Origin: a virus
Virus genome (UHGV): UHGV-0134280
Strand: one strand, 5' to 3'
DNA: 39,537 nucleotides
The notes under the pieces are model-generated. The model did not search any database and was not told the DNA's origin. It was given only the letters and a program-made list of their open reading frames with translations. Position numbers and translations under genes: made by a program. Positions 3,252 to 35,736 of the stretch are shown here, one piece after another; position 1 is the first letter of the stretch, and each line of letters begins with the position of its first letter.

Positions 3252-3642
3252 CGTCTTTTCTCCCCGGAATTAACTCGCGTGGATTATCGGAACGGTGATA
3301 GAGCCATATACCAATACGCACAGCGACAATTGCTGACACGAATGCGCCTGCAGAGAAAACAATCCCTTTTTCAAAAGAGTCCTGCGTGATGGTAGGGATC
3401 AGGCTAGCTATGCCGATAAGAATTGATGCTGCTGGTTTGTAAAAGAGAAGGCCGCAAAGAAAGCTGAGCATCGACAGGAGCACCCGGCGACGGATGGGGT
3501 ACTCTACTGCAGAGGTAACAAAAATTACCGCCCCAGCCAAAGCCCCTAAAGCAACCTCCGGAGGGACACCTGCAATAACCGCAGCAAGAGAACCAAAACT
3601 AAGCAACTGATTTAATTGCTCACTTGTTACTTGAGCAGACAT
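3238..3642 (-). CDS. Second holin-like small membrane protein (holin or antiholin)
   Basis: 134 aa, several predicted TM helices, charged C-terminus, overlaps the next holin gene; first gene of the lysis cassette. Confidence 0.45.
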   Translation of the reverse strand: MSAQVTSEQLNQLLSFGSLAAVIAGVPPEVALGALAGAVIFVTSAVEYPIRRRVLLSMLSFLCGLLFYKPAASILIGIASLIPTITQDSFEKGIVFSAGAFVSAIVAVRIGIWLYHRSDNPRELIPGRKDDGNA

Positions 3643-3923
3643 ACTTTCTCCTGTTTACTATCTATAAGCCAGTCAATTATTGATGACTAAACCCGCATAG
3701 TAAACCATATATGAATCATTATTGTTCCATATCATATATCTCAATAAAAGTACTAATGATTTTACAGAACGAGCCAGCAGAGTGGGGGCAGTTGTACAGG
3801 AACCATAGACTTAATTTTGTATTTAATAATGCTATGGTGTAATAAACCTGAACATGTATTTAAAATACGTACTGATTCATGATAGAATTCAAAGATAACT
3901 TTTCACCAACTCCGTTTTTGATA

Positions 3924-3950
3924 CCCGCAAAATATTGCGGGCTTTTTTTT
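3924..3950. terminator. Hairpin cccgcaa/ttgcggg with 8-T run at the 3' end of the tailspike gene
   Basis: Stem-loop 3924-3941; the T-run is on the plus strand and overlaps the tailspike stop codon, so the transcript it terminates is unclear. Confidence 0.4.
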
Positions 3951-6900
3951 AACGTTCTTCCAGAGACTGAATCCGCTCTTTTATCTTATCCATTTCTCTG
4001 CGCTGCCATGCTGCCTCGATATAGAATAAGAGATCAGGTCTGACCCCCCATCTAGATCCTGCTGGCGTTATTTCAACGCGCTCAATGATGTCTTCCATTA
4101 CCATCACTGGATTATCATCCTCATCAACAATGATGCTCCCGTCATTATCAGTCAGCGGAATTTCCCTTTGGCCAGTAATGACGTCATCATATACTGCGGG
4201 ATAATCGTCATAGCAAAGAAAGGCATAGCGGCATGTTGTGCTTTCTTCTTCCATGAGTCCGTGAGAAATAAGAACATCACGAAGTTGCTGCGCGATTACA
4301 CCATGATGTATCCTCGCCCCTTCTTCTCCCTTTATAGCGACAGCGTTCAGCCATTTATAAGCGATATACCTGACGTCACCCCAGGCATCCAGCAATGCTT
4401 CGTCAGGAGAGACCGGCTCTGTCTTTAATGTTCCGTCACTGGTAACCACAGGATTGGAGCCAAGATAAACTGTCGAGAACCTGTTTCCCGGACCACCAAG
4501 AGCATTTACATTATCAAGATAAGGTTTAACATCTCCGTTCTCAAAAAGATGTTCGAGTGCGTTATATACCGCGCGACGTGGAGTACTGCTTCCGGAACCA
4601 TGCAACGTTATCATTGCACCATCTGCTGAAGACGTTGTTTCACCGCCGCTAACGATTAATCTCTGAGCGGTAACATCATCAGACGGTACTTTCTTCGCAA
4701 TAATGGCGTAATTGCCCTCCAGTTTGACTTCCGCGCGAACTTGTCCTGATGTACCTGCATGGACAGTCAGTGACTGGACGGCAACATCATCTGTGAAATC
4801 AACGGGTACAGGAACCGTCCTCACGCCGGACGTCGACATAAAAGTAGGAAGCGTTCTGTTAGGAGTGGCTCCGTAGACAAAATCCCTTGAAACAAATTCT
4901 TCCTGTTTAATTTTCACCCTGAAACAATACAAATCAGCCGGGTGACCATCGTGAACATAAGGATATTTTCTGTTGTTATCCCCTATGCTCCATGGGTTTA
5001 GAAAGTCTTCCCCACCGAAAATGTAGTACAGCCAGTTGTCTTTGATACAAACTGAACCAACACCAACCGCAGAGTTAACTATTCCGCCCTGATAAATCTG
5101 ATCAGTAACATTAACCCACTCTACATTATCCAGACTCCACTCATTGACGTTAACTCTGGTCATAAATGTTCTTGGATAATTTCCTGCATAACGATTATCA
5201 GGTTCCCCTCCTTCCCACTCACCAAATGCGCGCTCACTGCCAAAAATAACCAGCTCATCGCCAACTTTGGCAAAAGGAAGGTTTGAGTGATGAACATTAT
5301 TTGGGAAGCGAAGAGAATTCCATGATGCACCTAAATCAGAGCTTCTGTGCAATGAACTACCAGGTTGAGTACTTAATGTCCCCCTGGTCGTCAGATACAG
5401 AATGCCATCATAATATTTTACACATGGCTCAGATGCATTCGCCTCATATTCTGCAGGTATGCGTCTGCGAACAAAGCTACCAGGAGAACCGAAAGCATCA
5501 GAGAAATAGAGTATCCCAAGCTCGCGTGGACCAATATCACCATTATGGTAGCCAACAGCAAAACTGTTATCGCTAATCGTCGCAAAACTGTGAATCTCAG
5601 TAACAGGAGTGCTTCCGTCAACAAAAGAAGGAATAGTTCCAAGACTGGTTTTTCTCCATGGTGACGAGTGAAATGATGTACCAAAACTCCAGTATCTACC
5701 CTCGTTATTCTGATCCACATCCTGAGTATTTTGCGTCGTAACTGTAAAAGTATTTTTATCAATAACAGTAGTCACCGTCATATTCCCGGTAACACCTGTA
5801 ACACCAGAGTTTGAGAAGTTGACAAAATCACCAGCAAATAATCCGTGATCAGTAATGCGAATATAAGCGACTTGCTGATTTGCTGCTTTCGTTATACCAC
5901 CATAAACGCGAAGGCTGCGACTCATTGGACGATCCCACAACTCTGCAACCTGCAGTTTATTTCCGCTCACGGTCCGCGTCTCAATTACAGCAAAAAGGCG
6001 ATTTCTGACAACCCCCATACTCATGCAGTGATAGTTAACTGTGGGATAGTTTTCATGTAAATCTGTAAGCCATTCCGGCGTTGTCCAGGTCTTCCCGTCA
6101 TCTCCTGAGCGAACCCATGCAACATGGAGGTTATTTACACCATGGCGGTCTCCAGCCATAAAAGGCGCATAGATGACATTGTCATATACAAACGTTTTAT
6201 CCTGCGTCCAGGCGTTGTACCACGGTGTATCTGTAATTTTAAATAACTCTCCCTGGATAAAATCTTCAGAAGCATAAAAAAGAGGCTGACCCGGTATTCT
6301 CTCAAATAAAAAACGAGCATTTTTAAATCGGCTGACATCCGGAAGAGTTGATACTTTAAAAGTAAGCCCTAATCCGTCAATTTTATAACCTGGAGATGAG
6401 GCTTCAAGGCACGCGCTTATTGCAGTGGAATCGTCATTTATACCATCACCAACAGCTCCAAAATCTTTGGGGCTAATAGCATCACGCATTTTATCCTGGA
6501 ACGTTCGGTATACTGCCCCAGAACCATACTGAATAAACCAACCAAAACCACCAACAACCCCGGCGATTGCAGCATCGACATAATTACGCATTGAGCGATT
6601 ATTTACAGCGTCCTGTTCAAGTGATGGATCTGCAAGGTTAGAAATTCTGTTTTGCTTTGCATCGTAATATTTTGCAAGCAAAGATGGTTTCATCAATGCA
6701 CGTCTGAACCATCCAAAACATTGCTGGATCAGCATCGTCAGGTAGTCAAAGGCATCTTCATGCACTTCGGGGAAAAACTTTCCCTGATTGCGAAGGTCTG
6801 TCTCCTGCACTACATCAAGCACACGATCTATCGTAATTCGCCAGCCAGCAGCAAGCGGCGACGGAAGAACAACAGAACCGCCACTATAAGTGCCCGCCCC

Positions 6901-7068
6901 AGTTACCGTATAACCGGTATCCAGAACCAATTCTGTTACGTTCCCGTTCAGGTCAGACACCTGAACAACCAGGTCGGATTTTTTGAAAATACGGAAGGTA
7001 TACGGAAATGATGTCGTAGCGCCGTTACCGGTGTATTCGTTGTGGTCAACTTCGGTTGAGACCGTCAT
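3949..7068 (-). CDS. Tailspike/tail fibre: T7 gp17-like N-terminal anchor, sialidase-type beta-propeller with Asp-boxes, C-terminal intramolecular chaperone (peptidase S74-like)
   Basis: N-terminal pattern resembles the T7 fibre anchor; Asp-boxes SGDDGKTW and SSDLGASW; C-terminal about 160 aa carries SDGTLK...YKW...GVIAQQL typical of auto-cleaving chaperone domains. Confidence 0.75.
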   Translation of the reverse strand: MTVSTEVDHNEYTGNGATTSFPYTFRIFKKSDLVVQVSDLNGNVTELVLDTGYTVTGAGTYSGGSVVLPSPLAAGWRITIDRVLDVVQETDLRNQGKFFPEVHEDAFDYLTMLIQQCFGWFRRALMKPSLLAKYYDAKQNRISNLADPSLEQDAVNNRSMRNYVDAAIAGVVGGFGWFIQYGSGAVYRTFQDKMRDAISPKDFGAVGDGINDDSTAISACLEASSPGYKIDGLGLTFKVSTLPDVSRFKNARFLFERIPGQPLFYASEDFIQGELFKITDTPWYNAWTQDKTFVYDNVIYAPFMAGDRHGVNNLHVAWVRSGDDGKTWTTPEWLTDLHENYPTVNYHCMSMGVVRNRLFAVIETRTVSGNKLQVAELWDRPMSRSLRVYGGITKAANQQVAYIRITDHGLFAGDFVNFSNSGVTGVTGNMTVTTVIDKNTFTVTTQNTQDVDQNNEGRYWSFGTSFHSSPWRKTSLGTIPSFVDGSTPVTEIHSFATISDNSFAVGYHNGDIGPRELGILYFSDAFGSPGSFVRRRIPAEYEANASEPCVKYYDGILYLTTRGTLSTQPGSSLHRSSDLGASWNSLRFPNNVHHSNLPFAKVGDELVIFGSERAFGEWEGGEPDNRYAGNYPRTFMTRVNVNEWSLDNVEWVNVTDQIYQGGIVNSAVGVGSVCIKDNWLYYIFGGEDFLNPWSIGDNNRKYPYVHDGHPADLYCFRVKIKQEEFVSRDFVYGATPNRTLPTFMSTSGVRTVPVPVDFTDDVAVQSLTVHAGTSGQVRAEVKLEGNYAIIAKKVPSDDVTAQRLIVSGGETTSSADGAMITLHGSGSSTPRRAVYNALEHLFENGDVKPYLDNVNALGGPGNRFSTVYLGSNPVVTSDGTLKTEPVSPDEALLDAWGDVRYIAYKWLNAVAIKGEEGARIHHGVIAQQLRDVLISHGLMEEESTTCRYAFLCYDDYPAVYDDVITGQREIPLTDNDGSIIVDEDDNPVMVMEDIIERVEITPAGSRWGVRPDLLFYIEAAWQRREMDKIKERIQSLEER

Positions 7069-7171
7069 GTTAAATCTCCAGATAGTCGCAGCACCCGTTG
7101 CGCCGCATATCTGGTTATTCTATTACCTGAAAAACCACATATGGATAGAAAGACTGTGAATACGAATAGAT

Positions 7172-7188
7172 ATTACCTTTCAGGTAAT
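7172..7188. promoter_or_regulatory. 17-bp palindrome ATTACC-TTTCA-GGTAAT (site A, perfect)
   Basis: Read directly; in the divergent region between tailspike and the KilAC gene; an extra half-site ATTACCT lies at 7122-7128. Confidence 0.6.
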
Positions 7189-7224
7189 TTGCAAAACGTG
7201 CTGGATAGCAAACAAATTATTTGC

Positions 7225-7244
7225 TACTGTATAAATATACAGTT
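7225..7244. promoter_or_regulatory. LexA (SOS) box TACTGTATAAATATACAGTT
   Basis: CTGT-N8-ACAG with AT-rich spacer matches the enterobacterial SOS box; about 20 bp upstream of the ATG at 7264. Confidence 0.6.
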
Positions 7245-7263
7245 ATTGCATGGAGAAGATAAG

Positions 7264-7521
7264 ATGCAGCAGTATCACTATCCACTGGAAGACGGATTTA
7301 CCGAAAGGATTCACACGCCGGGAGGCGTCAGGTCACTGGTGGAGGGATCGCACTTGATGAAATTACTCCGGGATCTCAATAAGGATGGATTTAATGTCGA
7401 TGGCCCACTTGCCGAACTGACTGCACTGATTAACTACGTCACCAGCTCACAGATGTCTATGCAGGATCTGCAAACACATCTCGACTATTGTGCCGAACAA
7501 TTACGAAAACAAACCAGGTAA
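7264..7521 (+). CDS. Small KilAC/ANT C-terminal-domain protein (candidate SOS-controlled antirepressor)
   Basis: 86 aa from MQQYHY with GGAGAAG RBS; paralogous to the C-terminal domain of the Bro-N protein at 8668..9360. Confidence 0.55.
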   Translation: MQQYHYPLEDGFTERIHTPGGVRSLVEGSHLMKLLRDLNKDGFNVDGPLAELTALINYVTSSQMSMQDLQTHLDYCAEQLRKQTR

Positions 7522-7527
7522 ATTTAA

Positions 7528-7552
7528 AGGCCGCAAGAGCGGCCTATCGTTT
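7528..7552. terminator. Hairpin ggccgc-aaga-gcggcc between convergent genes
   Basis: 6-bp GC stem right after the stop at 7521, overlapping the stop of the minus gene; weak T-tract. Confidence 0.4.
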
Positions 7553-8272
7553 CGCTTTGTGCTCGTCCCAGCACGTTTTGCACCATGCCATTAAGCCGTC
7601 CGCATTTTGATTATTAGGGTAAAAGCTGGTTCGTTTTCTGCGGACATTACAAATTGGGCACCACTTCATATGACGTGTATTCTTTGGGCCATCGAGACAC
7701 CTTGCACACCACTTAGTCAATCCATCCGGATTTTTTGACGATTTCCTGAATTTTTCATATGGAAGGTTTATTCTGCATCGCAAGCACTGCTTGCTACCGC
7801 TTGAAACTCTGTTAGCTGATTCTTCTTTTGGCGGCGATACAGAAGATATTCTTGCTGGCTCTGATACTGCCTGAGGTGCTTTTTTAAATGACTGAGACGA
7901 TATGTCATCACCAGGGAATCTTCCATGATATGCCGGACGCGTTGACACTCCAGGTGGAAGCTCAGCTGTAAACGGCTTTGGCTGAATCAGTTGCCTCTCT
8001 TTTGCTAACTCCTGCTGTTTATAATATGTCTGGATTACCGCACTATCATAAGCATGAGGTACGGAAATATCAGGAGCGTTACCTCCAGTTTTTTGAAACT
8101 GAGTAGATGTGTGCTCTATCACCTGTGTACGATTAATCGTTATCTCCCCATCTTCGGTCTTTATCGTTTTGTTCTGATTAACGACCGTACGATCAGAGAT
8201 CTTAGTCTTGTTCTGGTTGATAACGTAAATAATCACCGCAACCACACCAACAACTATCCAGAAAACTTCCAT
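7544..8272 (-). CDS. N-terminally membrane-anchored protein with two C-terminal zinc-ribbon repeats, function unknown
   Basis: TM helix at residues 4-20; duplicated C-x2-C...DGL..WC..C modules in a basic C-terminal domain; GAGGAAAA RBS. Confidence 0.5.
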   Translation of the reverse strand: MEVFWIVVGVVAVIIYVINQNKTKISDRTVVNQNKTIKTEDGEITINRTQVIEHTSTQFQKTGGNAPDISVPHAYDSAVIQTYYKQQELAKERQLIQPKPFTAELPPGVSTRPAYHGRFPGDDISSQSFKKAPQAVSEPARISSVSPPKEESANRVSSGSKQCLRCRINLPYEKFRKSSKNPDGLTKWCARCLDGPKNTRHMKWCPICNVRRKRTSFYPNNQNADGLMAWCKTCWDEHKAKR

Positions 8273-8291
8273 TGCTTTTCCTCACAATAAC

Positions 8292-8308
8292 ATTACCTTA
8301 AAGGTAAT
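8292..8308. promoter_or_regulatory. 17-bp palindrome ATTACC-TTAAA-GGTAAT (site B, perfect)
   Basis: Read directly; immediately upstream of the RBS of the 7544..8272 gene. Confidence 0.6.
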
Positions 8309-8384
8309 ATCTTGCTTTCAGGTGATCAAGCGTTAAACGCAATCAACCAAATACGGTTGATTTTAATGTTTTTTCGCGCTTATC

Positions 8385-8401
8385 ATTACCTTTTCGGTAA
8401 A
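8385..8401. promoter_or_regulatory. 17-bp palindrome ATTACC-TTTTC-GGTAAa (site C)
   Basis: Read directly; one mismatch in the right half; inside the structured 8273-8667 intergenic region. Confidence 0.5.
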
Positions 8402-8667
8402 TTTACATCGCACTCCTCTTGTGCCATAGTAATCGGGCACTGGCAAAATCCAGTGCCGGGATTGGTCTCCCGGATTACTACAGAGGCACATATGCCGCAT
8501 AAGCGGTTTTTTTATGTGTAAAGCGCACCTATTCTATGGTGGGCTGTGTGGGGGCACCGAAAGGTGCGCCGGGTTCCTTTGTAGCCGGTAAGACCAACTC
8601 TGCACAGTTCACCACCATCTGATTGGTCTCAGCGGTGGTGATTAACCTAACTACAAAGGTGATCGCC

Positions 8668-9360
8668 ATGAATACCAAACCTTCCATCTTTTCCTTTGAG
8701 TCATCCTGCCAGATCCGTATGTTCATGATTGACGGAGAACCTTGGTTTGTCACCAAAGATGTGTGCAATGCTTTGAATATTGATGTTACACAAGCGAGAA
8801 AACTTGATAAAAAAGGCTGGAACAAAAAGGGGCTGCATTCAATACAGACCCCTGGTGGAATACAAGAACTATCCATCGTTTCAGAATCAGGTCTCTACAT
8901 CCTTATTCTGCGTTGCAAAGAGGCAATGACAGAGGGAACGAGAGCATTCAGATTTCTTGAATGGGTTACAGGTGAGGTTCTTCCTCAGATCCGCCGCACC
9001 GGAAGCTACATTAAAAACTCGCTCCCGCAGGAAGAACGCATAAAGATGGTTGCCGACCAGGTTGCCAACGCCACGGCGTCAGCAGTGATGCAGGCAATGA
9101 AGATAGAGAACAAAACCTACAGCGCCCCACTGAAGCCCGGCTACCGCAGTCTGATTCACTCGCCGTCTGGTGTTCTCGGCCTGACGGAGAACTCACTGCT
9201 GATGAATCTGCTGAACCAGTTACAGGAAGACGGGCACGACGTATCGGGCGCGGCGGCGGAGCTGACCACCATGTTCTGCTACATCGTCGGTGTGAGCAAA
9301 TGCCTGCGTGATATCGAGACCCACGCGGAGTACATCAACGATAAAGCAGGATTTTTCTGA
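8668..9360 (+). CDS. Ant-like antirepressor (Bro-N domain plus KilAC/ANT C-terminal domain)
   Basis: N-terminal pattern IRMFMIDGEPWFVTKDVCNAL typical of Bro-N; C-terminal domain paralogous to 7264..7521; start trimmed to MNTKP. Confidence 0.7.
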   Translation: MNTKPSIFSFESSCQIRMFMIDGEPWFVTKDVCNALNIDVTQARKLDKKGWNKKGLHSIQTPGGIQELSIVSESGLYILILRCKEAMTEGTRAFRFLEWVTGEVLPQIRRTGSYIKNSLPQEERIKMVADQVANATASAVMQAMKIENKTYSAPLKPGYRSLIHSPSGVLGLTENSLLMNLLNQLQEDGHDVSGAAAELTTMFCYIVGVSKCLRDIETHAEYINDKAGFF

Positions 9361-9432
9361 CGGAACGGCGGCACAGGGATGTGCCTTTAAATAATTCTGT
9401 ACAGATTGCAGACTGGGGGTGAATAGCGTACT

Positions 9433-9449
9433 ATTACCTTAAAGGTAAA
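9433..9449. promoter_or_regulatory. 17-bp palindrome ATTACC-TTAAA-GGTAAa (site D)
   Basis: Read directly; abuts the AGGAGG RBS of the small ORF at 9461. Confidence 0.55.
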
Positions 9450-9460
9450 GGAGGCGCGAT

Positions 9461-9628
9461 ATGACAGCGTTGAAAAATCGTACTCAGCACAATGAACAAG
9501 CCAAGCAATGCTGGGATGTCATTGGAAAAGTTATGCTTGGCCGCGCAAGCAAAGAGCGCGACAAGGATATGGTTTACCAGACAGGAACATCTTTCAGCGA
9601 CTTCAAGGCGGCATTTCGCTCCAAATAG
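9461..9628 (+). CDS. Small 55-aa protein, first gene of a two-gene moron
   Basis: ATG with AAGGAGG RBS; not in the ORF track because under 60 aa; translation MTALKNRTQHNEQAKQCWDVIGK...; 20 bp before the next gene. Confidence 0.4.
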   Translation: MTALKNRTQHNEQAKQCWDVIGKVMLGRASKERDKDMVYQTGTSFSDFKAAFRSK

Positions 9629-9648
9629 AAGCACATTAGGAGTTTGTC

Positions 9649-10089
9649 TTGAAGTTTAACATTAGAATATCTAATAGTTTTCTAAATGGGGAAAGCAACA
9701 CCCCTTTCGCTGTAGACGGACCTTTCCTTACTGACGATGAAATAAAAATCATACAAAGGTTTTTAGAAGATGTTGCCAATGGAAGGGCGCTTGTTGGAAA
9801 AAACAAGCCATCGTGGGTTGATGATAACCATGATAAAATTCCCGGCTCAGACAATTATGAGCAAGAGAATTATTGGCATTATCATTGTGGGCCAACATGG
9901 TATCCAAACACATTTAAGAATTATACCATTAACTTAAATTTCAACCCCGGCGGAATGCATTCTAATGAATGCATTCATTATGCAAAAAATGATAATGAAA
10001 TTGTCGTTGTTGGATTTTCAAGAGAACACATACCTTTCCTTTCATCAGATGGAAACGACAATCCGCTTTTTTATGATGAAGAAGAATAG
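9649..10089 (+). CDS. Moron protein of unknown function in an AT-rich segment
   Basis: TTG start with AGGAG RBS 7 nt upstream; base composition visibly lower in GC than flanking virion genes; strong terminator downstream; no recognisable motifs. Confidence 0.5.
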   Translation: MKFNIRISNSFLNGESNTPFAVDGPFLTDDEIKIIQRFLEDVANGRALVGKNKPSWVDDNHDKIPGSDNYEQENYWHYHCGPTWYPNTFKNYTINLNFNPGGMHSNECIHYAKNDNEIVVVGFSREHIPFLSSDGNDNPLFYDEEE

Positions 10090-10110
10090 CCCGCGCCGCG
10101 GGCTTTTTTG
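10088..10110. terminator. Rho-independent terminator gcccgcg/cgcgggc plus T6
   Basis: GC-rich hairpin then TTTTTT right after the stop of 9649..10089; an A-run on the other side makes it potentially bidirectional. Confidence 0.6.
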
Positions 10111-10174
10111 TGTCTGCGGATTCCCGTCCGGGCGGCGGTGGCATTCGTTAAAAACAAGGCCGCGAAAGCGGCAT

Positions 10175-10186
10175 GTGACATGTCAC
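10175..10186. repeat. 12-bp perfect palindrome GTGACATGTCAC (copy 1)
   Basis: Read directly; 8 bp downstream of the small minus-strand ORF, at the end of the virion operon. Confidence 0.7.
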
Positions 10187-10193
10187 GCTCACG

Positions 10194-10334
10194 TTATGAC
10201 AAGCCTATGTACCCTGCTACACCAGATAATATCAAAATAACTGCAACAGCAAATTCGCCATCGTCAATGATACATTTACGGTTCATAACGCCAAGTGCAA
10301 CAAGCGCAAACACAACAAGAATAAAAGCAATCAT
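10194..10334 (-). CDS. 46-aa two-helix hydrophobic peptide, translationally coupled to the last internal virion gene
   Basis: ATG 9 nt after the upstream stop with AAGGATGAG RBS; translation MIAFILVVFALVALGVMNRKCIIDDGEFAVAVILILSGVAGYIGLS; not in the ORF track. Confidence 0.4.
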   Translation of the reverse strand: MIAFILVVFALVALGVMNRKCIIDDGEFAVAVILILSGVAGYIGLS

Positions 10335-10343
10335 TTCTCATCC

Positions 10344-12818
10344 TTATTGCGGAGTGACATCCTGTGGTCGCCACCAGTATGTCTGGTTAAACTCTTTCTT
10401 CGAACGTTGCTCCATTTTACGCAAATAACCTGGTGAAAAATACTCCTGCATCTGGTTAAAGATCATGTGATCGAGAGCCGCCTTCAAGTACCAGAGATTC
10501 GCACCTGGCATCAGACCTTTCCCCAGCTTAACCAGATCACCACCAGTCTGCTCACTCTTCCCTTCCACAGCATTTAACGGTATGCCCTGAGCAATCTTCA
10601 CTACGTCATCAACCAGACCAGCTACCGGGCCAAGCATCGACGCCAGCGCGCCGCTTCCGTACCTAGTGTGATCTGACAATAAAAAGTCACCGTAAAGGCC
10701 AAGACCACCACCTTTCAGTAGAGCACCAAGCCAAAATTTAGCAGCATCTTCTCCTGTCATCTCGCGAGGATTACGACCAGACGCAAGGTCGTTAAGTTGC
10801 TGCGACAAAGCGCCAAGAATGGTCGTACTGGCAATAAACGTCGCAATATATGCCGCACGCCCACCAGCAGACGGCATACCCATAGCGCGTGACCAGTGAC
10901 GCATAACCACCGAGATAGGGAACGATTTAAACAGGAAAACACTTCTCGTTAATTCACCTTTCCATGTTCCACGCTGAATACCAGAACCGGTTATCAGTTG
11001 CTCACGTGCTCCCGGTGTAATAACAGCCATATCAACTTCTTCAGTTATGGCACCGAGCAGTTTACGCATTGCCTCAAATTTCACGCGTTCAGGCTCACCA
11101 AGATGTTTAACTGCTGAATCAGGGATACGCATAATGCTTTCCGGTGTCAGCATCGTATTATTGCCGTTCCCCCAGTCCTCCTGTTGCGCCAGCTTCCATA
11201 CGCTCCAGTCTGTGTCAGTAATCCCTTTGCTTTTCAGGATGCGAAAATCAGAATCATCGAGGCTACGAAGGTCTGGTGTCCGTGACACTACTTCTCCCAA
11301 GCTTCCCATCATGGTTACGCCATAGGCGCGCTTGTGCGCATCTGACCATGCTGTAAGCCCACTGGCACGCATTACCGCCGTTGCAGCCCAACGAGACACA
11401 GACGGCCCCATATTATCCATCGCCCAGCGGTTAACGCTGCCAAGTAGAGATTCCATCGCCAGACCAGCGCGGCGCGCCCGCGCAAGTTCTGTACGGTTCG
11501 TTGGGTCCATAGCTTCAAGCTGGTTGCGGAATAACTGGTTCATTGGAAGGTTGGTCACCTTCGCAGACAGATACATGGTTCCAAGATCAGAGAACGATGA
11601 CAGCAACGCGGATCCGAGTCTGCTGGCAACCAGCCAGTTGCGGATATTGTCAGACCATCGCGCGATGTGCGGATTCGCTACAGGCTGTGTCTTTCCGGAA
11701 ATAAAGTTGTACAGATTCTCTGTGTTGTTCGCCAGCCGCTCGACTTTACCGGTTTTACTCGGGTTAGCTGTTGCCGTTTCTGCCTTCACCTGATCAAGAA
11801 GAGAGCGGAAAACATGATCGGGGTTTGGGCCATATGTTTCCACCAGTGCAATATCTTTACTGATACCTTCCAGGTGACCGACCATGATTTCCCATAGAGA
11901 GCGATCGCCATAAAGTTGCTGATATTGCAGATAGGAATCTGCATCTTTGAAATGTATCTGTCGTGATGTATTACCACGGTTAGCACGTGCGCCTGAAATT
12001 CGCATTCCGGTATCAGTAAGCTTATTCAGCCCACCAGTAGCGATCGTGTTATAAGCCTCTCCAAGAAATGCAGACAACTCGGAATCGTTCATCAGTTGTC
12101 CATCGGCTCGGATATAATATTTGCGATCCAGCTTACCTATAACATCGCTAACCCACTTATCCTTTGATACCGCCCCAACCTTTTCCATAGAATGATGTTG
12201 AGGGATTCCCCAGTTTTCGAGATAGCCAATGTCCCCACCAGCATCATTAAACCGGCGGCGCAGTAGATCTGTCACTTCTCTCCACGCCTTAGCACCTTTT
12301 CTTGCTTTAGCATTGCCAGTATTTTGCCCTCGCATTTCATATACCAGGTCACGCACGCCAGCTTCATCTTCAAACAGGCCAAAAAAGCGAGGATCAACTG
12401 CTTCAAATGCCTCTTGCAATTGACTCAATGCATAATCACGAGTGGCTTTTGTTCTGGACTCAACAGAGAGGAAATTCGATTTACCGTCTGCATTAAAAGC
12501 AATAGTACGGTTAAGAGCGCCAAGTTTCCCATCAGCCCCTTGATAGCTATTGATAAATTTATCCAATCTCTGACGTGCGGATATAGTGAGGGCCACACGA
12601 CGTTTCTTTAATGCCGCTTCTCGCTGTAATTCTTCAGATGCCAATTGTGCTGCACGATATAGCCGCTCTGATTCGGAAAGTTGTCTCCACGACATCGGGT
12701 CATCACGAGCAATGGAGCGCATATTTCGATAAATGCGGTCTTCAATGTTCTGTATTTCTCGCGCCGTTAACGTGCGCTGCGCCGCCTGCTGGACCGCTTG
12801 TATACATTCCTGTCTCAT
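10344..12818 (-). CDS. Internal virion/ejection protein (T7 gp16-like, C-terminal part)
   Basis: 824 aa; called by size and position in the gp13-gp16-like block upstream of the tailspike. Confidence 0.5.
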   Translation of the reverse strand: MRQECIQAVQQAAQRTLTAREIQNIEDRIYRNMRSIARDDPMSWRQLSESERLYRAAQLASEELQREAALKKRRVALTISARQRLDKFINSYQGADGKLGALNRTIAFNADGKSNFLSVESRTKATRDYALSQLQEAFEAVDPRFFGLFEDEAGVRDLVYEMRGQNTGNAKARKGAKAWREVTDLLRRRFNDAGGDIGYLENWGIPQHHSMEKVGAVSKDKWVSDVIGKLDRKYYIRADGQLMNDSELSAFLGEAYNTIATGGLNKLTDTGMRISGARANRGNTSRQIHFKDADSYLQYQQLYGDRSLWEIMVGHLEGISKDIALVETYGPNPDHVFRSLLDQVKAETATANPSKTGKVERLANNTENLYNFISGKTQPVANPHIARWSDNIRNWLVASRLGSALLSSFSDLGTMYLSAKVTNLPMNQLFRNQLEAMDPTNRTELARARRAGLAMESLLGSVNRWAMDNMGPSVSRWAATAVMRASGLTAWSDAHKRAYGVTMMGSLGEVVSRTPDLRSLDDSDFRILKSKGITDTDWSVWKLAQQEDWGNGNNTMLTPESIMRIPDSAVKHLGEPERVKFEAMRKLLGAITEEVDMAVITPGAREQLITGSGIQRGTWKGELTRSVFLFKSFPISVVMRHWSRAMGMPSAGGRAAYIATFIASTTILGALSQQLNDLASGRNPREMTGEDAAKFWLGALLKGGGLGLYGDFLLSDHTRYGSGALASMLGPVAGLVDDVVKIAQGIPLNAVEGKSEQTGGDLVKLGKGLMPGANLWYLKAALDHMIFNQMQEYFSPGYLRKMEQRSKKEFNQTYWWRPQDVTPQ

Positions 12819-22068: not shown

Positions 22069-22119
22069 CTTCTTTCTCCATTAGTGGGTCTGTTACGACC
22101 CACAGGTTAATAACAGGCG

Positions 22120-26101: not shown

Positions 26102-26118
26102 ATTACCTTTCAGGTAAC
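26102..26118. promoter_or_regulatory. 17-bp palindrome ATTACC-TTTCA-GGTAAc (site E)
   Basis: Read directly; about 16 bp after a TTGACA hexamer at 26081-26086; upstream of the tRNA island. Confidence 0.5.
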
Positions 26119-26439: not shown

Positions 26440-26516
26440 GTGGCATTAGCTCAGCTGGACAGAGCAACCGCCTTCTAAGCGGTTGGTCGCAGGTTCGAAT
26501 CCTGCATGCCACGCCA
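26440..26516 (+). tRNA. tRNA-Arg (anticodon UCU)
   Basis: Cloverleaf folded by hand: 7-bp acceptor stem GTGGCAT/ATGCCAC, D-arm, anticodon loop CTTCTAA, T-loop TTCGAAT, discriminator G and encoded CCA. Confidence 0.85.
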
Positions 26517-26714
26517 GAATCACACCTAAGGACCGTGATGCCAGAAGTTCCAGGGGCTTGGCGGTGATGGTTTCCCTTGAAGGACTATCACCGCCCTTTT
26601 TACAGCAGGACGCCATTGCGATGACTTCATGCTGTAAACCCGTACAGCCACGGAAGGCAGAACCCATTGCTTCCAGTTCGCCCGGTTCGCCGGGCATTTT
26701 TTTAAGGTGAGATT

Positions 26715-29261: not shown

Positions 29262-29278
29262 GTTACCGTTGTGGTAAT
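29262..29278. promoter_or_regulatory. 17-bp palindrome gTTACC-GTTGT-GGTAAT (site J) with an extra GGTAAT half-site at 29255-29260
   Basis: Read directly; between the terminator at 29286-29314 and the small terminase RBS. Confidence 0.5.
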
Positions 29279-32550: not shown

Positions 32551-32614
32551 AATTTCCCCCTGAGGTAATTAAAAACCACATAAGACACGAAATCAATAGA
32601 GTTTAGAATATTTT

Positions 32615-32631
32615 ATTACCTCACAGGTAAT
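32615..32631. promoter_or_regulatory. 17-bp palindrome ATTACC-TCACA-GGTAAT (site F, perfect)
   Basis: Read directly; between a weak terminator after the P-like gene and the nuclease gene promoter. Confidence 0.6.
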
Positions 32632-34280: not shown

Positions 34281-34480
34281 TCAGCTTGAATGTTGTGGGG
34301 AGGAATTAATCATGATCTGCTTAATCTCTGCCCTGATGCGACGGTTTGATTCCATAGTGCACTCAACACAGTGTCCGTTGTAAACCCAGCGTTCACTGTC
34401 ATGTCCGTGCTTACATGGTTTTCCGGTGTAGTAGCGTTTAAGTCCGCGCTTTGCGGCATCAATACGTGTAATGATTTCCA
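34281..34480 (-). CDS. Small Cys/His-rich protein (possible zinc-binding regulator)
   Basis: 66 aa from MEIITR; motif CKHGHDSERWVYNGHCVEC; first gene after the terminator that follows the Cro-like gene. Confidence 0.4.
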
Positions 34481-34560: not shown

Positions 34561-34577
34561 ATTACCTTTGAGGTACG
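34561..34577. promoter_or_regulatory. 17-bp palindrome ATTACC-TTTGA-GGTAcg (site G)
   Basis: Read directly; right half degenerate; lies just after the terminator hairpin that follows the Cro-like gene. Confidence 0.45.
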
Positions 34578-34631: not shown

Positions 34632-34862
34632 TCATGAGTAGAAGAAGTATGCCAGTTCTGCTTTTGAGCGCAGCCATTGTCTTGTTTTACAGGCTTTAAA
34701 AAGCCCATTCATCAATACCTTACCTGGCATTTTGCGCTTACCTGTTAAGTGAGTCTGGATATAGTGACTCGTCGTTCCGGCTTCCTGTGCGAAGGCTTCA
34801 CGCTCATCCGGAGTAAGTGCAAGCCAGTGCTTTTTGAAATCGAAATGTCCGTTATCGCTCAT
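34632..34862 (-). CDS. Cro-like HTH regulator (XRE family)
   Basis: 76 aa; HTH-like segment QEAGTTSHYIQTHLTGKRKMPG; first gene of the early operon divergent from the repressor. Confidence 0.55.
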   Translation of the reverse strand: MSDNGHFDFKKHWLALTPDEREAFAQEAGTTSHYIQTHLTGKRKMPGKVLMNGLFKACKTRQWLRSKAELAYFFYS

Positions 34863-34906
34863 AGCTATTGCCTGATATTTATTTCAGATAATAAATATTC
34901 ACCCAT

Positions 34907-34961
34907 AAGGTAACAAAAATCAAGGATAGTTACCTATGAGGTGCATTTACCTGTTGGGTAA
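34907..34961. promoter_or_regulatory. Operator array in the divergent immunity region (overlapping TTACC/GGTAA sites K and L plus a half-site)
   Basis: AGGTAAC at 34907-34913, TTACC-TATGA-GGTgc at 34929-34945, TTACC-TGTTG-GGTAAT at 34945-34961; between the Cro-like start (34862) and repressor start (35017). Confidence 0.55.
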
Positions 34962-35016
34962 TATTGCTTTAAATTGAATCATCTACTGATTCATATATGA
35001 GGCGATTTTCCAGAAA

Positions 35017-35601
35017 ATGAAAAGTATCCAGGACGTCCGCAGGCAAAATCTCAACGACTTGATCGACCGTGAATTCAATGGTGTTCAGACGCGGATGGCA
35101 GAAAAACTTGGAACTCAGGCAAATCTGGTAAACCGCTGGGCTCTTGGCAAGAAGGTTATCGGCGACCAGGTTGCGCGAAAAATTGAAGCTGCCGCCAATA
35201 AACCCCGTAACTGGCTTGATATCGATCGCTCGCTTTCTCAGGAAGGTTTTCAGCCTGTCGGCCCAAGCGACATTGGTCAGCTGGCGGCTCACAACCTGGA
35301 ACGCTGGATGAGCGAAAGCCGCGACCTTTCAACACAGGGAAAACTTCACCGCGCATCCGGCGTCGCCCAGGTAACAATCAGCCGCCTGTTAAACAATGAG
35401 GTCAGCGTTTCCATTTCCACCCTGGAGAATGTTGCATCCGCATTCGGGCGTCACGGCTATGAATTACTGATTCACCCGCACGACCCTGCGACCATCAACT
35501 ATGACCGCTCGCGCTACGCATTGTTACCCGAAACCGAGAAAGCAAAGATCGAAAGTTACATTGAATTTGTCATCAACCAGAACGAAAAAAATAAACAATA
35601 A
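35017..35601 (+). CDS. Immunity repressor candidate with two XRE-type HTH domains and no S24 peptidase domain
   Basis: HTH-like segments around residues 20-55 and 105-150; no LexA-like Ser/Lys autocleavage module seen; no obvious RBS (possibly leaderless). Confidence 0.65.
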   Translation: MKSIQDVRRQNLNDLIDREFNGVQTRMAEKLGTQANLVNRWALGKKVIGDQVARKIEAAANKPRNWLDIDRSLSQEGFQPVGPSDIGQLAAHNLERWMSESRDLSTQGKLHRASGVAQVTISRLLNNEVSVSISTLENVASAFGRHGYELLIHPHDPATINYDRSRYALLPETEKAKIESYIEFVINQNEKNKQ

Positions 35602-35657: not shown

Positions 35658-35674
35658 ATTACCTTATGGGTAAT
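35658..35674. promoter_or_regulatory. 17-bp palindrome ATTACC-TTATG-GGTAAT (site H, perfect)
   Basis: Read directly; between the repressor terminator and the TTGACA hexamer at 35693. Confidence 0.6.
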
Positions 35675-35692
35675 TTTTTTAACTCATATCTA

Positions 35693-35736
35693 TTGACATC
35701 AAACCAAATACGCATAATCATTACCTAAACGGTAAC
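35693..35736 (+). promoter_or_regulatory. Candidate early-left promoter (TTGACA ... CATAAT/TAATCA) with overlapping palindrome ATTACC-TAAAC-GGTAAc (site I, 35720-35736)
   Basis: Consensus -35 hexamer; -10-like hexamers 14-16 bp downstream; operator-like palindrome over the predicted start region. Confidence 0.4.

Follow-up and report, generated by a model that had tools for sequence, protein, structure and literature searches.

An SPC32H-type antirepressor gene behind a LexA box, and a probable second antirepressor behind an isrK/C4 RNA leader, in a phiV10-like podophage of Escherichia coli

The window analysed here, a stretch of 39,537 nucleotides (39.5 kilobases, kb) from UHGV virus genome UHGV-0134280, belongs to a Uetakevirus-type (epsilon15/phiV10-like) temperate podophage of Escherichia coli. 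The region of interest, at positions 7225-9360, opens with a LexA (SOS) box and continues with ant, a gene for an 85-residue antirepressor (7264-7521, + strand), a gene for a 242-residue protein on the opposite strand, and a leader containing isrK-type and C4-type RNAs, which precedes the gene for a 230-residue antirepressor paralogue with a Bro-N domain (8668-9360, + strand). The proposed target, the repressor Rep, is encoded at 35017-35601 (+ strand). The best overall explanation of these features is that the phage carries two antirepressor modules aimed at one repressor, to which we assign a probability of about 0.8.

A megablast search with positions 6900-9700 matched the E. coli phages TL-2011b, EC.W1-9, HEMP4, phiv142-3, ZX5 and phiV10, and more weakly Enterobacter phage Tyrion and epsilon15-like phages of Salmonella; most of the matches are classed as Uetakevirus. 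Within this region, 2.4 kb (7069-9460) recur at 99.9% identity in a prophage on the chromosome of E. coli VR50. This stretch is matched in 543 of 5,426 complete E. coli genomes, 102 of which carry nearly all of it.

The small antirepressor and its LexA box

The product of 7264-7521 was compared with the sequences in the PDB, where its residues 2-84 match chain E of entry 5D50 ('Anti-repressor protein') with E=2e-46. Entry 5D50 shows Rep and Ant of Salmonella phage SPC32H in complex, and a tblastn search gave 86.7% identity between the 85-residue protein and the annotated ant of that phage; the GenBank records of SPC32H and of phage SPC32N name the corresponding genes ant and rep. The protein also belongs to PHROG family phrog_450, and the gene is an orthologue of SPC32H ant. 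An earlier note on this DNA had described the gene at 7264 as encoding an 86-residue KilAC-domain protein, and had proposed a profile search to confirm the domains of both antirepressors. The open reading frame (ORF) stands, with 85 residues rather than 86. The profile search confirmed the Bro-N domain of the paralogue (see below), while neither protein matched the Pfam ANT/KilAC family (PF03374) even at E<=10. The domain common to the two antirepressors is, by sequence match, the SPC32H-Ant fold (5D50_E; phrog_450) and not KilAC.

The earlier note had also considered it unusual that the antirepressor genes lie within the structural region. This is not the case for phages of this kind: in SPC32H, epsilon15, phiV10, TL-2011b, Tyrion and others, and in fact in every phage examined, ant is flanked by the tailspike gene, from which it diverges, and by the injection-protein genes. 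A location beside the tailspike is therefore the norm for the genus. In phage records searched with tblastn, Ant was found in 35 and Rep in 37, and the two sets almost coincide; ant is intact in all 35 of the records that carry it. Among the matches listed, the gene is labelled 'hypothetical protein' in ZX5 (3501-3758), phiV10, TL-2011b and E. coli chromosomes. We note that one free-standing Ant, from Klebsiella phage BUCT711 (595-852), has the motif DGHDVSGAAAEL, normally a mark of the C-terminal domains of fused Bro-N proteins, and this suggests exchange between the free-standing and fused classes of paralogue.

The LexA box, TACTGTATAAATATACAGTT, occupies 7225-7244, with the CTGT-N8-ACAG core at 7227-7242, and overlaps the presumed ant promoter. 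It agrees with the E. coli LexA 20-mer consensus TACTGTATATATATACAGTA at 18 of 20 positions, and its end is separated from the ant start codon (7264) by 19 base pairs (bp). The near-consensus box that the earlier note had placed about 20 bp before this gene is thus borne out, and it is unique: it is the sole site in the window with three mismatches or fewer, and none was found in 100 shuffled sequences. The looser pattern CTGT-N8-ACAG occurs three times in the window (0.52 expected). The other two occurrences, at 22090-22105 and 26632-26647, have GC-rich spacers and more than three mismatches to the 20-mer and lie in late-gene and tRNA regions; we judged them to be chance matches.

The intergenic region between the tailspike gene and ant was aligned for ten phages from E. 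coli, Salmonella, Enterobacter and Klebsiella. All ten have a LexA box at the same aligned position, with two to four mismatches to the consensus, so that the box is present in phages of four host genera. In the eight phages from hosts other than Klebsiella, TACTGT and ATACAGT are almost invariant and the centre of the box is variable; in both Klebsiella phages the left half of the box is ATGT.

In SPC32H, LexA reportedly represses ant from a site that overlaps the ant promoter. SPC32N is said to be SPC32H with two nucleotide changes, among them a point mutation in the LexA site that makes the production of Ant constitutive. When we compared 1,449 bp of these two phages, we found exactly two base differences, one in the tailspike gene and the other a C-to-A change in the ACAG half-site of the aligned box. 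The position of this change agrees with the account that a 2013 paper is said to give, and ties the aligned box of the window to a genetically defined LexA operator.

The repressor and its operators

Rep is a repressor of 194 residues with two helix-turn-helix (HTH) domains. Its residues 1-190 match chain A of 5D50 ('Repressor') with E=4e-42, and its C-terminal half, which is an HTH domain, is also homologous to PDB entry 5D4Z. Pfam identifies HTH_3 at residues 106-147 together with a weak N-terminal match to the HTH-like family YdaS, and gives no match to Peptidase_S24 even at E<=10. The proposal in the earlier note that this repressor lacks an autocleavage domain is therefore upheld. Rep is 42% identical to the Rep of SPC32H; its sequence is the same as that of the ZX5 and phiV10 repressors (100% identity).

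One could suppose that the LexA box is non-functional and that the prophage is induced by RecA-stimulated self-cleavage of Rep, as in phage lambda, or by some other route; the lack of a strong consensus promoter overlapping the box would fit this. We regard the idea as scarcely credible. Against it stand the absence of an S24 domain from Rep and the homology of Rep to SPC32H Rep over its whole length. The box, moreover, is the one near-consensus site in the window and is kept in phages of four host genera although the spacer beside it varies, and it is in the aligned box that one of the two differences between SPC32H and SPC32N falls.

The SOS response reportedly leaves the Rep of SPC32H uncleaved, and Ant is said to be what inactivates it. 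The order of events suggested in the earlier note, in which LexA controls a small antirepressor that acts on a non-cleavable repressor, is supported for the window by the orthology of Ant and Rep to the SPC32H proteins and by the aligned box. The LexA-Ant-Rep switch, which we call module 1, is the E. coli copy of the SPC32H system (Kim & Ryu 2013, J Virol 87:11775; Kim et al. 2016, PNAS 113:E2480; PDB 5D50, 5D4Z), and that system is published, structurally characterised and genus-wide. PMC7380047 states that Ant of this type is produced once LexA has cleaved itself, and that it inhibits the repressor. PMC9638917 adds that Rep is tetrameric on DNA, and that a tetramer of Ant takes two Rep dimers and so breaks the Rep tetramer. 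The same mechanism is cited in a 2025 preprint (bioRxiv 10.1101/2025.11.27.690993).

The likeness to SPC32H extends to an Ant orthologue of about 87% identity, a two-domain Rep homologue with no peptidase, a LexA box that aligns column for column, the position of ant between the tailspike and injection-protein genes, and ATTACC-N5-GGTAAT palindromes round rep and upstream of ant. The differences are that Rep is 42% identical, that the host of the window phage is E. coli and its tailspike an endosialidase, and that the window has about 2.8 kb of extra genes after ant (7544-10340), which include the second antirepressor module.

The 17-bp palindrome ATTACCT-N3-AGGTAAT (that is, ATTACC-N5-GGTAAT) occurs ten times in the window with two mismatches or fewer, where 0.06 would be expected; the looser core TTACC-N5-GGTAA with at most one mismatch is found at 14 sites, compared with about 1.1 in shuffled sequences. 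A cluster of these operator-type palindromes (34899-34962) lies between rep and a divergent cro-like gene (34632-34862, - strand), with another palindrome at 34561-34577. Just 3' of rep, two further palindromes 62 bp apart (35659 and 35721, within 35658-35736) bracket a TTGACA...CATAAT promoter. A second pair, likewise 62 bp apart (32554/32616), occupies 32554-32631, and there are palindromes at 29263-29277 and, singly, at 26102-26118. Four more are located around the antirepressor genes. The palindrome ATTACCTTTCAGGTAAT at 7172-7188 is about 37 bp 5' of the LexA box and is kept in all ten aligned phages; ATTACCTTAAAGGTAAT at 8292-8308 is 20 bp upstream of the start codon of the 242-residue gene; the palindrome at 8385-8401 abuts the -35 element of the isrK/C4 promoter described below, and its right half GGTAAA, with the TTTACA that follows, is kept in 9/9 carriers of that module; the fourth is at 9433-9449.

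The same arrangement is seen at SPC32H rep, which has three sites on each side, including a triple cluster at 34390-34451; pairs of SPC32H palindromes are also 62 bp apart (33604/33666 and 35972/36034), and one site lies upstream of ant. In the GenBank record of epsilon15, homologous sites are annotated as 'protein_bind: repressor', one of them upstream of gp19, the ant orthologue. From the enrichment, the clustering round rep in both the window and SPC32H, and the epsilon15 annotation, we conclude that the palindromes are very probably Rep operators. They flank not just rep but many intergenic promoters, a distribution which suggests that Rep binds genome-wide, beyond the immunity region. The candidate operator at 7172-7188 could control ant, the tailspike promoter that diverges from it, or the two together.

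The Bro-N paralogue and its RNA leader

The 230-residue product of 8668-9360 consists of an N-terminal Bro-N domain (Pfam PF02498, residues 16-106, E=9.9e-14, 52.2 bits with a cut-off of 25.6) and a C-terminal domain (residues 149-225) resembling SPC32H Ant. Residues 149-222 are 41% identical to the 85-residue Ant (E=2e-15), the C-terminal domain matches 5D50_E with E=2.6e-13, and the whole protein belongs to phrog_130, 'anti-repressor Ant'. A match to P22_AR_N is below threshold (17.8 bits, cut-off 30.7). Of the earlier description of this protein as a Bro-N/KilAC paralogue, the Bro-N domain and the shared C-terminal domain hold, and KilAC falls away. When the fused domains were compared with the free-standing Ant of five phages, 17 positions were invariant, at an identity of 35-37% between the two classes.

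The Bro-N protein is 80% identical to ORF4 of phage ZX5, with one difference in the last 124 aligned residues. Overexpression of ORF4 lowered the ZX5 prophage titre about 1000-fold, from ~1e9 to 1e6, and repressor mRNA by 75% (PMC9782041). Because the C-terminal domain is of the Ant type, ZX5 Rep is identical and ORF4 is near-identical, the Bro-N protein probably acts on this Rep too, as a second antirepressor, judging from homology and from the ZX5 precedent. In the antirepressor of phiv142-3 (1440-2096) the Ant-like C-terminal domain is nearly identical but is joined to an unrelated N-terminal domain, and the gene sits behind a C4 RNA with a different b specificity (defined below), which points to modular swapping of N-terminal domains and RNA specificities.

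Alternatively, the Bro-N protein might act on the repressors of other resident prophages, or have a function unrelated to repression. Antirepressors of Gifsy phages do work in trans against other prophages (Lemire et al. 2011, as cited in PMC7380047), Bro-N proteins are functionally varied, and the fused domain is just 35-37% identical to free-standing Ant. We nevertheless find this alternative improbable: in ZX5, where Rep is identical, the near-identical protein lowered the lysogeny of ZX5 itself (PMC9782041), and the C-terminal domain stays nearly unchanged when the N-terminal domain is swapped, as in phiv142-3, and keeps the 17 positions invariant between fused and free-standing forms.

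The authors of the ZX5 study credited the Bro-N protein ORF4 as the anti-repressor and did not recognise the SPC32H-type Ant (PMC9782041). If their assumption were carried over to the window, the Bro-N protein would be the main prophage inducer, and the 85-residue ORF would be accessory or irrelevant. In ZX5, ORF4 is the one gene annotated as an anti-repressor and its overexpression favours lysis (PMC9782041), and the small gene, as stated above, goes under 'hypothetical protein' in the listed records of E. coli phages and genomes. We consider this very unlikely, in view of several observations that run the other way. SPC32H and epsilon15 have ant and its LexA box with neither a Bro-N gene nor a C4 RNA; ant is intact in 35/35 records, a set nearly matching that of Rep, and the Bro-N gene of phiV10 is frameshifted; and the Bro-N gene of the window is not preceded by a LexA box. 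On this last point the earlier note was mistaken, since it had placed the Bro-N paralogue within the LexA circuit: the scan of the window at three mismatches or fewer found no LexA box upstream of the C4/Bro-N module, and what lies there is an isrK/C4 leader.

The leader begins with a promoter-like sequence, TTTACA-17-CATAGT (8402-8430, + strand), which is TG-extended, was found in the promoter scan and is conserved among carriers of the module; it would serve the isrK/C4/Bro-N transcript. Downstream is an isrK-type leader RNA with an intrinsic terminator (8437-8513, + strand; Rfam RF01394, 74.7 bits, gathering score 50). Within it are two candidate decoy sequences, a1 (UUGGUCU, 8462-8468) and b1 (CUACAGAGG, 8478-8486). 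A match to RF03163 (c4-a1b1) at 8424-8476 scored 39.9 bits, below its gathering score of 46.7. Next comes a C4-type antisense RNA (8532-8619, + strand; Rfam RF01695, 78.6 bits, gathering score 45). In its consensus fold, which is supported by three compensatory pairs in the first hairpin, the b' sequence (CCUUUGUAG) is in a hairpin loop at 8576-8584 and the a' sequence in a single-stranded bulge at 8591-8597. The presumed targets, both on the + strand, are a2 (UUGGUCU, 8623-8629) and b2 (CUACAAAGG, 8651-8659), and the Shine-Dalgarno sequence of the Bro-N gene falls within b2. The complementarity between b' and b2 is exact over 9 nucleotides, with b2 ending 8 nucleotides before the ATG at 8668; a' pairs exactly over 7 nucleotides with both a2 and a1, and b1 pairs with b' with one G-U wobble. 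The distance from the end of the C4 RNA to the Bro-N start codon is 48 nucleotides. On reading through the ant leader, we saw no sites resembling a2 or b2.

Besides the window, the isrK/C4 module is carried by phiV10, TL-2011b, Tyrion, ZX5, EC.W1-9, a Klebsiella prophage, phiv142-3 and HEMP4, while in SPC32H and epsilon15 neither the C4 RNA nor the Bro-N gene was found. Across these nine phages a', a1 and a2 change in concert, the type being either TTGGTCT or TTGGCGT, and so do b', b1 and b2, the type being CTACAAAGG, CTAAAAGG or CTAAGTGG. Four combinations of a and b occur, and complementarity is kept throughout, apart from a single G-U wobble affecting b1 in three of the phages. These concerted changes are good comparative evidence that the pairings between RNA and target are functional. 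We note that phages whose Rep proteins are 98.5-100% identical carry different C4 specificities, in at least four combinations.

The sign of this control could be as in P1, with C4 repressing, as in Gifsy-1, with isrK activating, or both, with isrK titrating C4. In Gifsy-1, the isrK promoter drives the antirepressor-like gene anrP, the translation of which is silent unless the short IsrK RNA is supplied in trans (PMC4825925). An account of the window leader along these lines would make the long transcript silent in cis, the short terminated isrK an activator of Bro-N translation in trans, and C4 something other than a classical trans-acting immunity repressor. It draws on the isrK match with its own intrinsic terminator upstream, on the behaviour of a PisrK-isrK-orf45-anrP fusion of Gifsy-1, which is transcribed and yet not translated without IsrK in trans (PMC4825925), and on the complementarity of a1 and b1 to a' and b' of C4, through which isrK could titrate C4. 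It has to contend with the overlap of b2 with the ribosome-binding site of the antirepressor gene itself, and with the concerted a'/a2 and b'/b2 specificity types, which are the signature of trans-acting immunity (compare P1 with P7). On balance we think the purely Gifsy-1-like account unlikely, though it deserves more weight than the two alternatives for the Bro-N protein considered above. The P1-like and Gifsy-1-like models are compatible and not mutually exclusive.

Neighbouring genes, related systems and the proposed switch

The left neighbour of the region is the tailspike gene (3949-7068, - strand), which is 99% identical to that of ZX5 and combines an epsilon15-type N-terminus with the full set of endosialidase domains and an S74 chaperone; to judge by its endosialidase domains, it is directed at the polysialic-acid (K1) capsule. 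Near the start of this gene, a block with the pattern TTCTATTACC..AAACC.TATATG.AT (7110-7150) is kept in 10/10 aligned phages. Read on the minus strand, it shows a good -10 element (TAGAAT) after a GGTAAT half-operator, and it may be the tailspike promoter. The right neighbour (10344-12818, - strand) is the counterpart of a 2,475-nucleotide gene at the same place in phiV10 and SPC32H. A tRNA-Arg gene (anticodon TCT, 26440-26516, + strand) lies in the late region, as it does in SPC32H.

Between the two antirepressor modules is the gene for the 242-residue protein (7544-8272, - strand; phrog_6762, function unknown), which we place outside the circuit. The protein has two Cys-rich, zinc-ribbon-like repeats with weak matches to Stc1 and to the N-terminal domain of endonuclease VII, and by reading it has a hydrophobic N-terminal segment; its gene is not found at the corresponding position in ZX5 or SPC32H. 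A GC-rich hairpin at 7528-7545, reported as a terminator-like site in the scan, is a probable terminator between ant and this convergent gene. After the Bro-N gene there are two small + strand genes of unknown function, neither with a Pfam or PADLOC match: phrog_8607 (9461-9628), which has an operator-type palindrome directly 5' of its ribosome-binding site, and phrog_5954 (9649-10089). A PADLOC search for defence systems among the five proteins of the island, the 242-residue protein included, returned no match.

For module 2, that is the leader and the Bro-N gene, a close parallel is the immI region of phages P1 and P7. P1 Ant is described as controlled by C1, C4 RNA and Icd in PMC8201110 (Citron & Schuster 1990, as cited there). 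Common to the two systems are a same-strand RNA of the C4 family upstream of the antirepressor gene with loops matching a1/b1 and a2/b2, a downstream target over a ribosome-binding site, specificity types that arise by concerted changes, and an operator of the primary repressor at the promoter. In contrast to immI, the window has no icd-like gene annotated or evident upstream, and b2 covers the antirepressor's own ribosome-binding site; it has an isrK-type terminator between a1/b1 and C4; its antirepressor is a Bro-N domain fused to an SPC32H-Ant domain; and its primary repressor is Rep rather than C1. Module 2 is an immI-like variant and not an orthologue of P1 immI.

The earlier note had looked to coliphage 186 Tum and to the Gifsy prophages for precedents. 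Both hold good as to logic, and the closest precedent is SPC32H instead. Phage 186 Tum shares the combination of a LexA box, a small antirepressor and a non-cleavable repressor (CI). Gifsy-1 combines a LexA-repressed antirepressor with an isrK-led, RNA-gated antirepressor-like gene in one prophage (Hershko-Shalev et al. 2016; Lemire et al. 2011); the Gifsy phages differ in being lambdoid siphophages, and the read-out in Gifsy-1 is the antiterminator AntQ and growth arrest. Proximity to a tailspike gene also has a parallel, in P22. The immI region of that phage (ant, mnt, arc and the sar RNA) is an antirepressor locus beside the tailspike of a temperate podophage, complete with an antisense RNA. 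P22 ant, however, is under the control of Mnt and Arc and not of LexA, and the P22 c2 repressor is RecA-cleavable; no homologues of Mnt or Arc were noted in the window. As to structure, Kim and Ryu are said to have found SPC32H Ant distinct from the antirepressors of sipho- and myoviruses.

We propose the following mechanism. In the lysogen, host LexA would occupy the box at 7225-7244, over the presumed ant promoter. DNA damage would bring about LexA self-cleavage, upon which the 85-residue Ant would be made; Ant would bind the non-cleavable Rep and dissociate its DNA-binding tetramer, and with Rep off the 17-bp ATTACC-N5-GGTAAT operators, lytic transcription would begin. The occupancy of the box by LexA, the dependence of Ant synthesis on the SOS response, the binding of Ant to Rep, the dissociation of the Rep tetramer and the absence of Rep cleavage are all expected here by analogy with SPC32H, and we hold this first part of the scheme to be very likely. 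In module 2, the a' and b' loops of C4 would pair with a2 and b2, the pairing at b2 masking the ribosome-binding site of the Bro-N gene, which would give post-transcriptional control as in P1/P7 immI; a1 and b1 of isrK would be decoys matching the C4 loops. Such RNA gating, and the action of the Bro-N protein on Rep, are suggested by P1, Gifsy-1 and ZX5, and the evidence leans towards an isrK/C4-gated second antirepressor of Rep, with less assurance than for the first. More speculatively, since a Rep operator is located at the leader promoter, loss of Rep may raise transcription of module 2 and so reinforce the switch by positive feedback. In keeping with module 1, mitomycin C induces ZX5 (PMC9782041), a phage whose Rep is identical to that of the window and whose Ant is 98.8% identical.

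Several points weigh against this scheme. The consensus promoter scan reported no sigma-70-like site at the LexA box, and the best readable candidate for the ant promoter, TGGATA-17-TACTGT, has 7/12 matches and is weak and unproven; both of its hexamers are kept in the ten-phage alignment. Rep is far less similar to its SPC32H counterpart than Ant is (42% as against 87%), so that the scheme assumes Ant-Rep binding to be conserved. In phiV10, the Bro-N 'anti-immunity' gene gp23 (3890-4569) is frameshifted inside the Ant-like domain, the remainder forming the small ORF gp22, and judging from this the second antirepressor is probably inactive in that phage; together with the lack of the module in SPC32H and epsilon15, the frameshift implies that module 2 is dispensable. 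The direction of RNA control differs between the precedents for module 2, being repression in P1 and trans-activation by short IsrK in Gifsy-1. Finally, IsrK is highly transcribed in Gifsy-1 lysogens (PMC7067206), which argues against tight repression of the leader promoter by Rep.

We tentatively suggest, at somewhat less than even odds, that phiV10-like podophages of E. coli have a two-key immunity, in which both antirepressors are built on one Rep-binding domain, the one free-standing and LexA-gated, the other with a swappable N-terminus and gated by isrK/C4. Such phages would share Rep immunity and differ in C4 immunity, as P1 and P7 do, and the Rep operator at the C4 promoter could provide a positive-feedback amplifier of the SOS signal. 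In the literature searched, we found no paper on Uetakevirus that pairs a LexA-gated with a C4-gated antirepressor on a shared domain, and none that sets out how C4 specificities vary in E. coli phages whose Rep is identical.

That mitomycin C induces these prophages is accounted for by the LexA-Ant-Rep circuit. Several such phages, that of the window included, carry endosialidase tailspikes for the K1 capsule. There is also a value for annotation, as ant stands as a 'hypothetical protein' in the records listed and the 2.4-kb region is matched in 543/5,426 complete E. coli genomes. The dual control by LexA and C4 adds a modest detail to what was known, and all its parts are familiar ones. The C4-gated second antirepressor with its co-varying types offers a modest starting point for work on superinfection immunity in podophages that are otherwise homoimmune.

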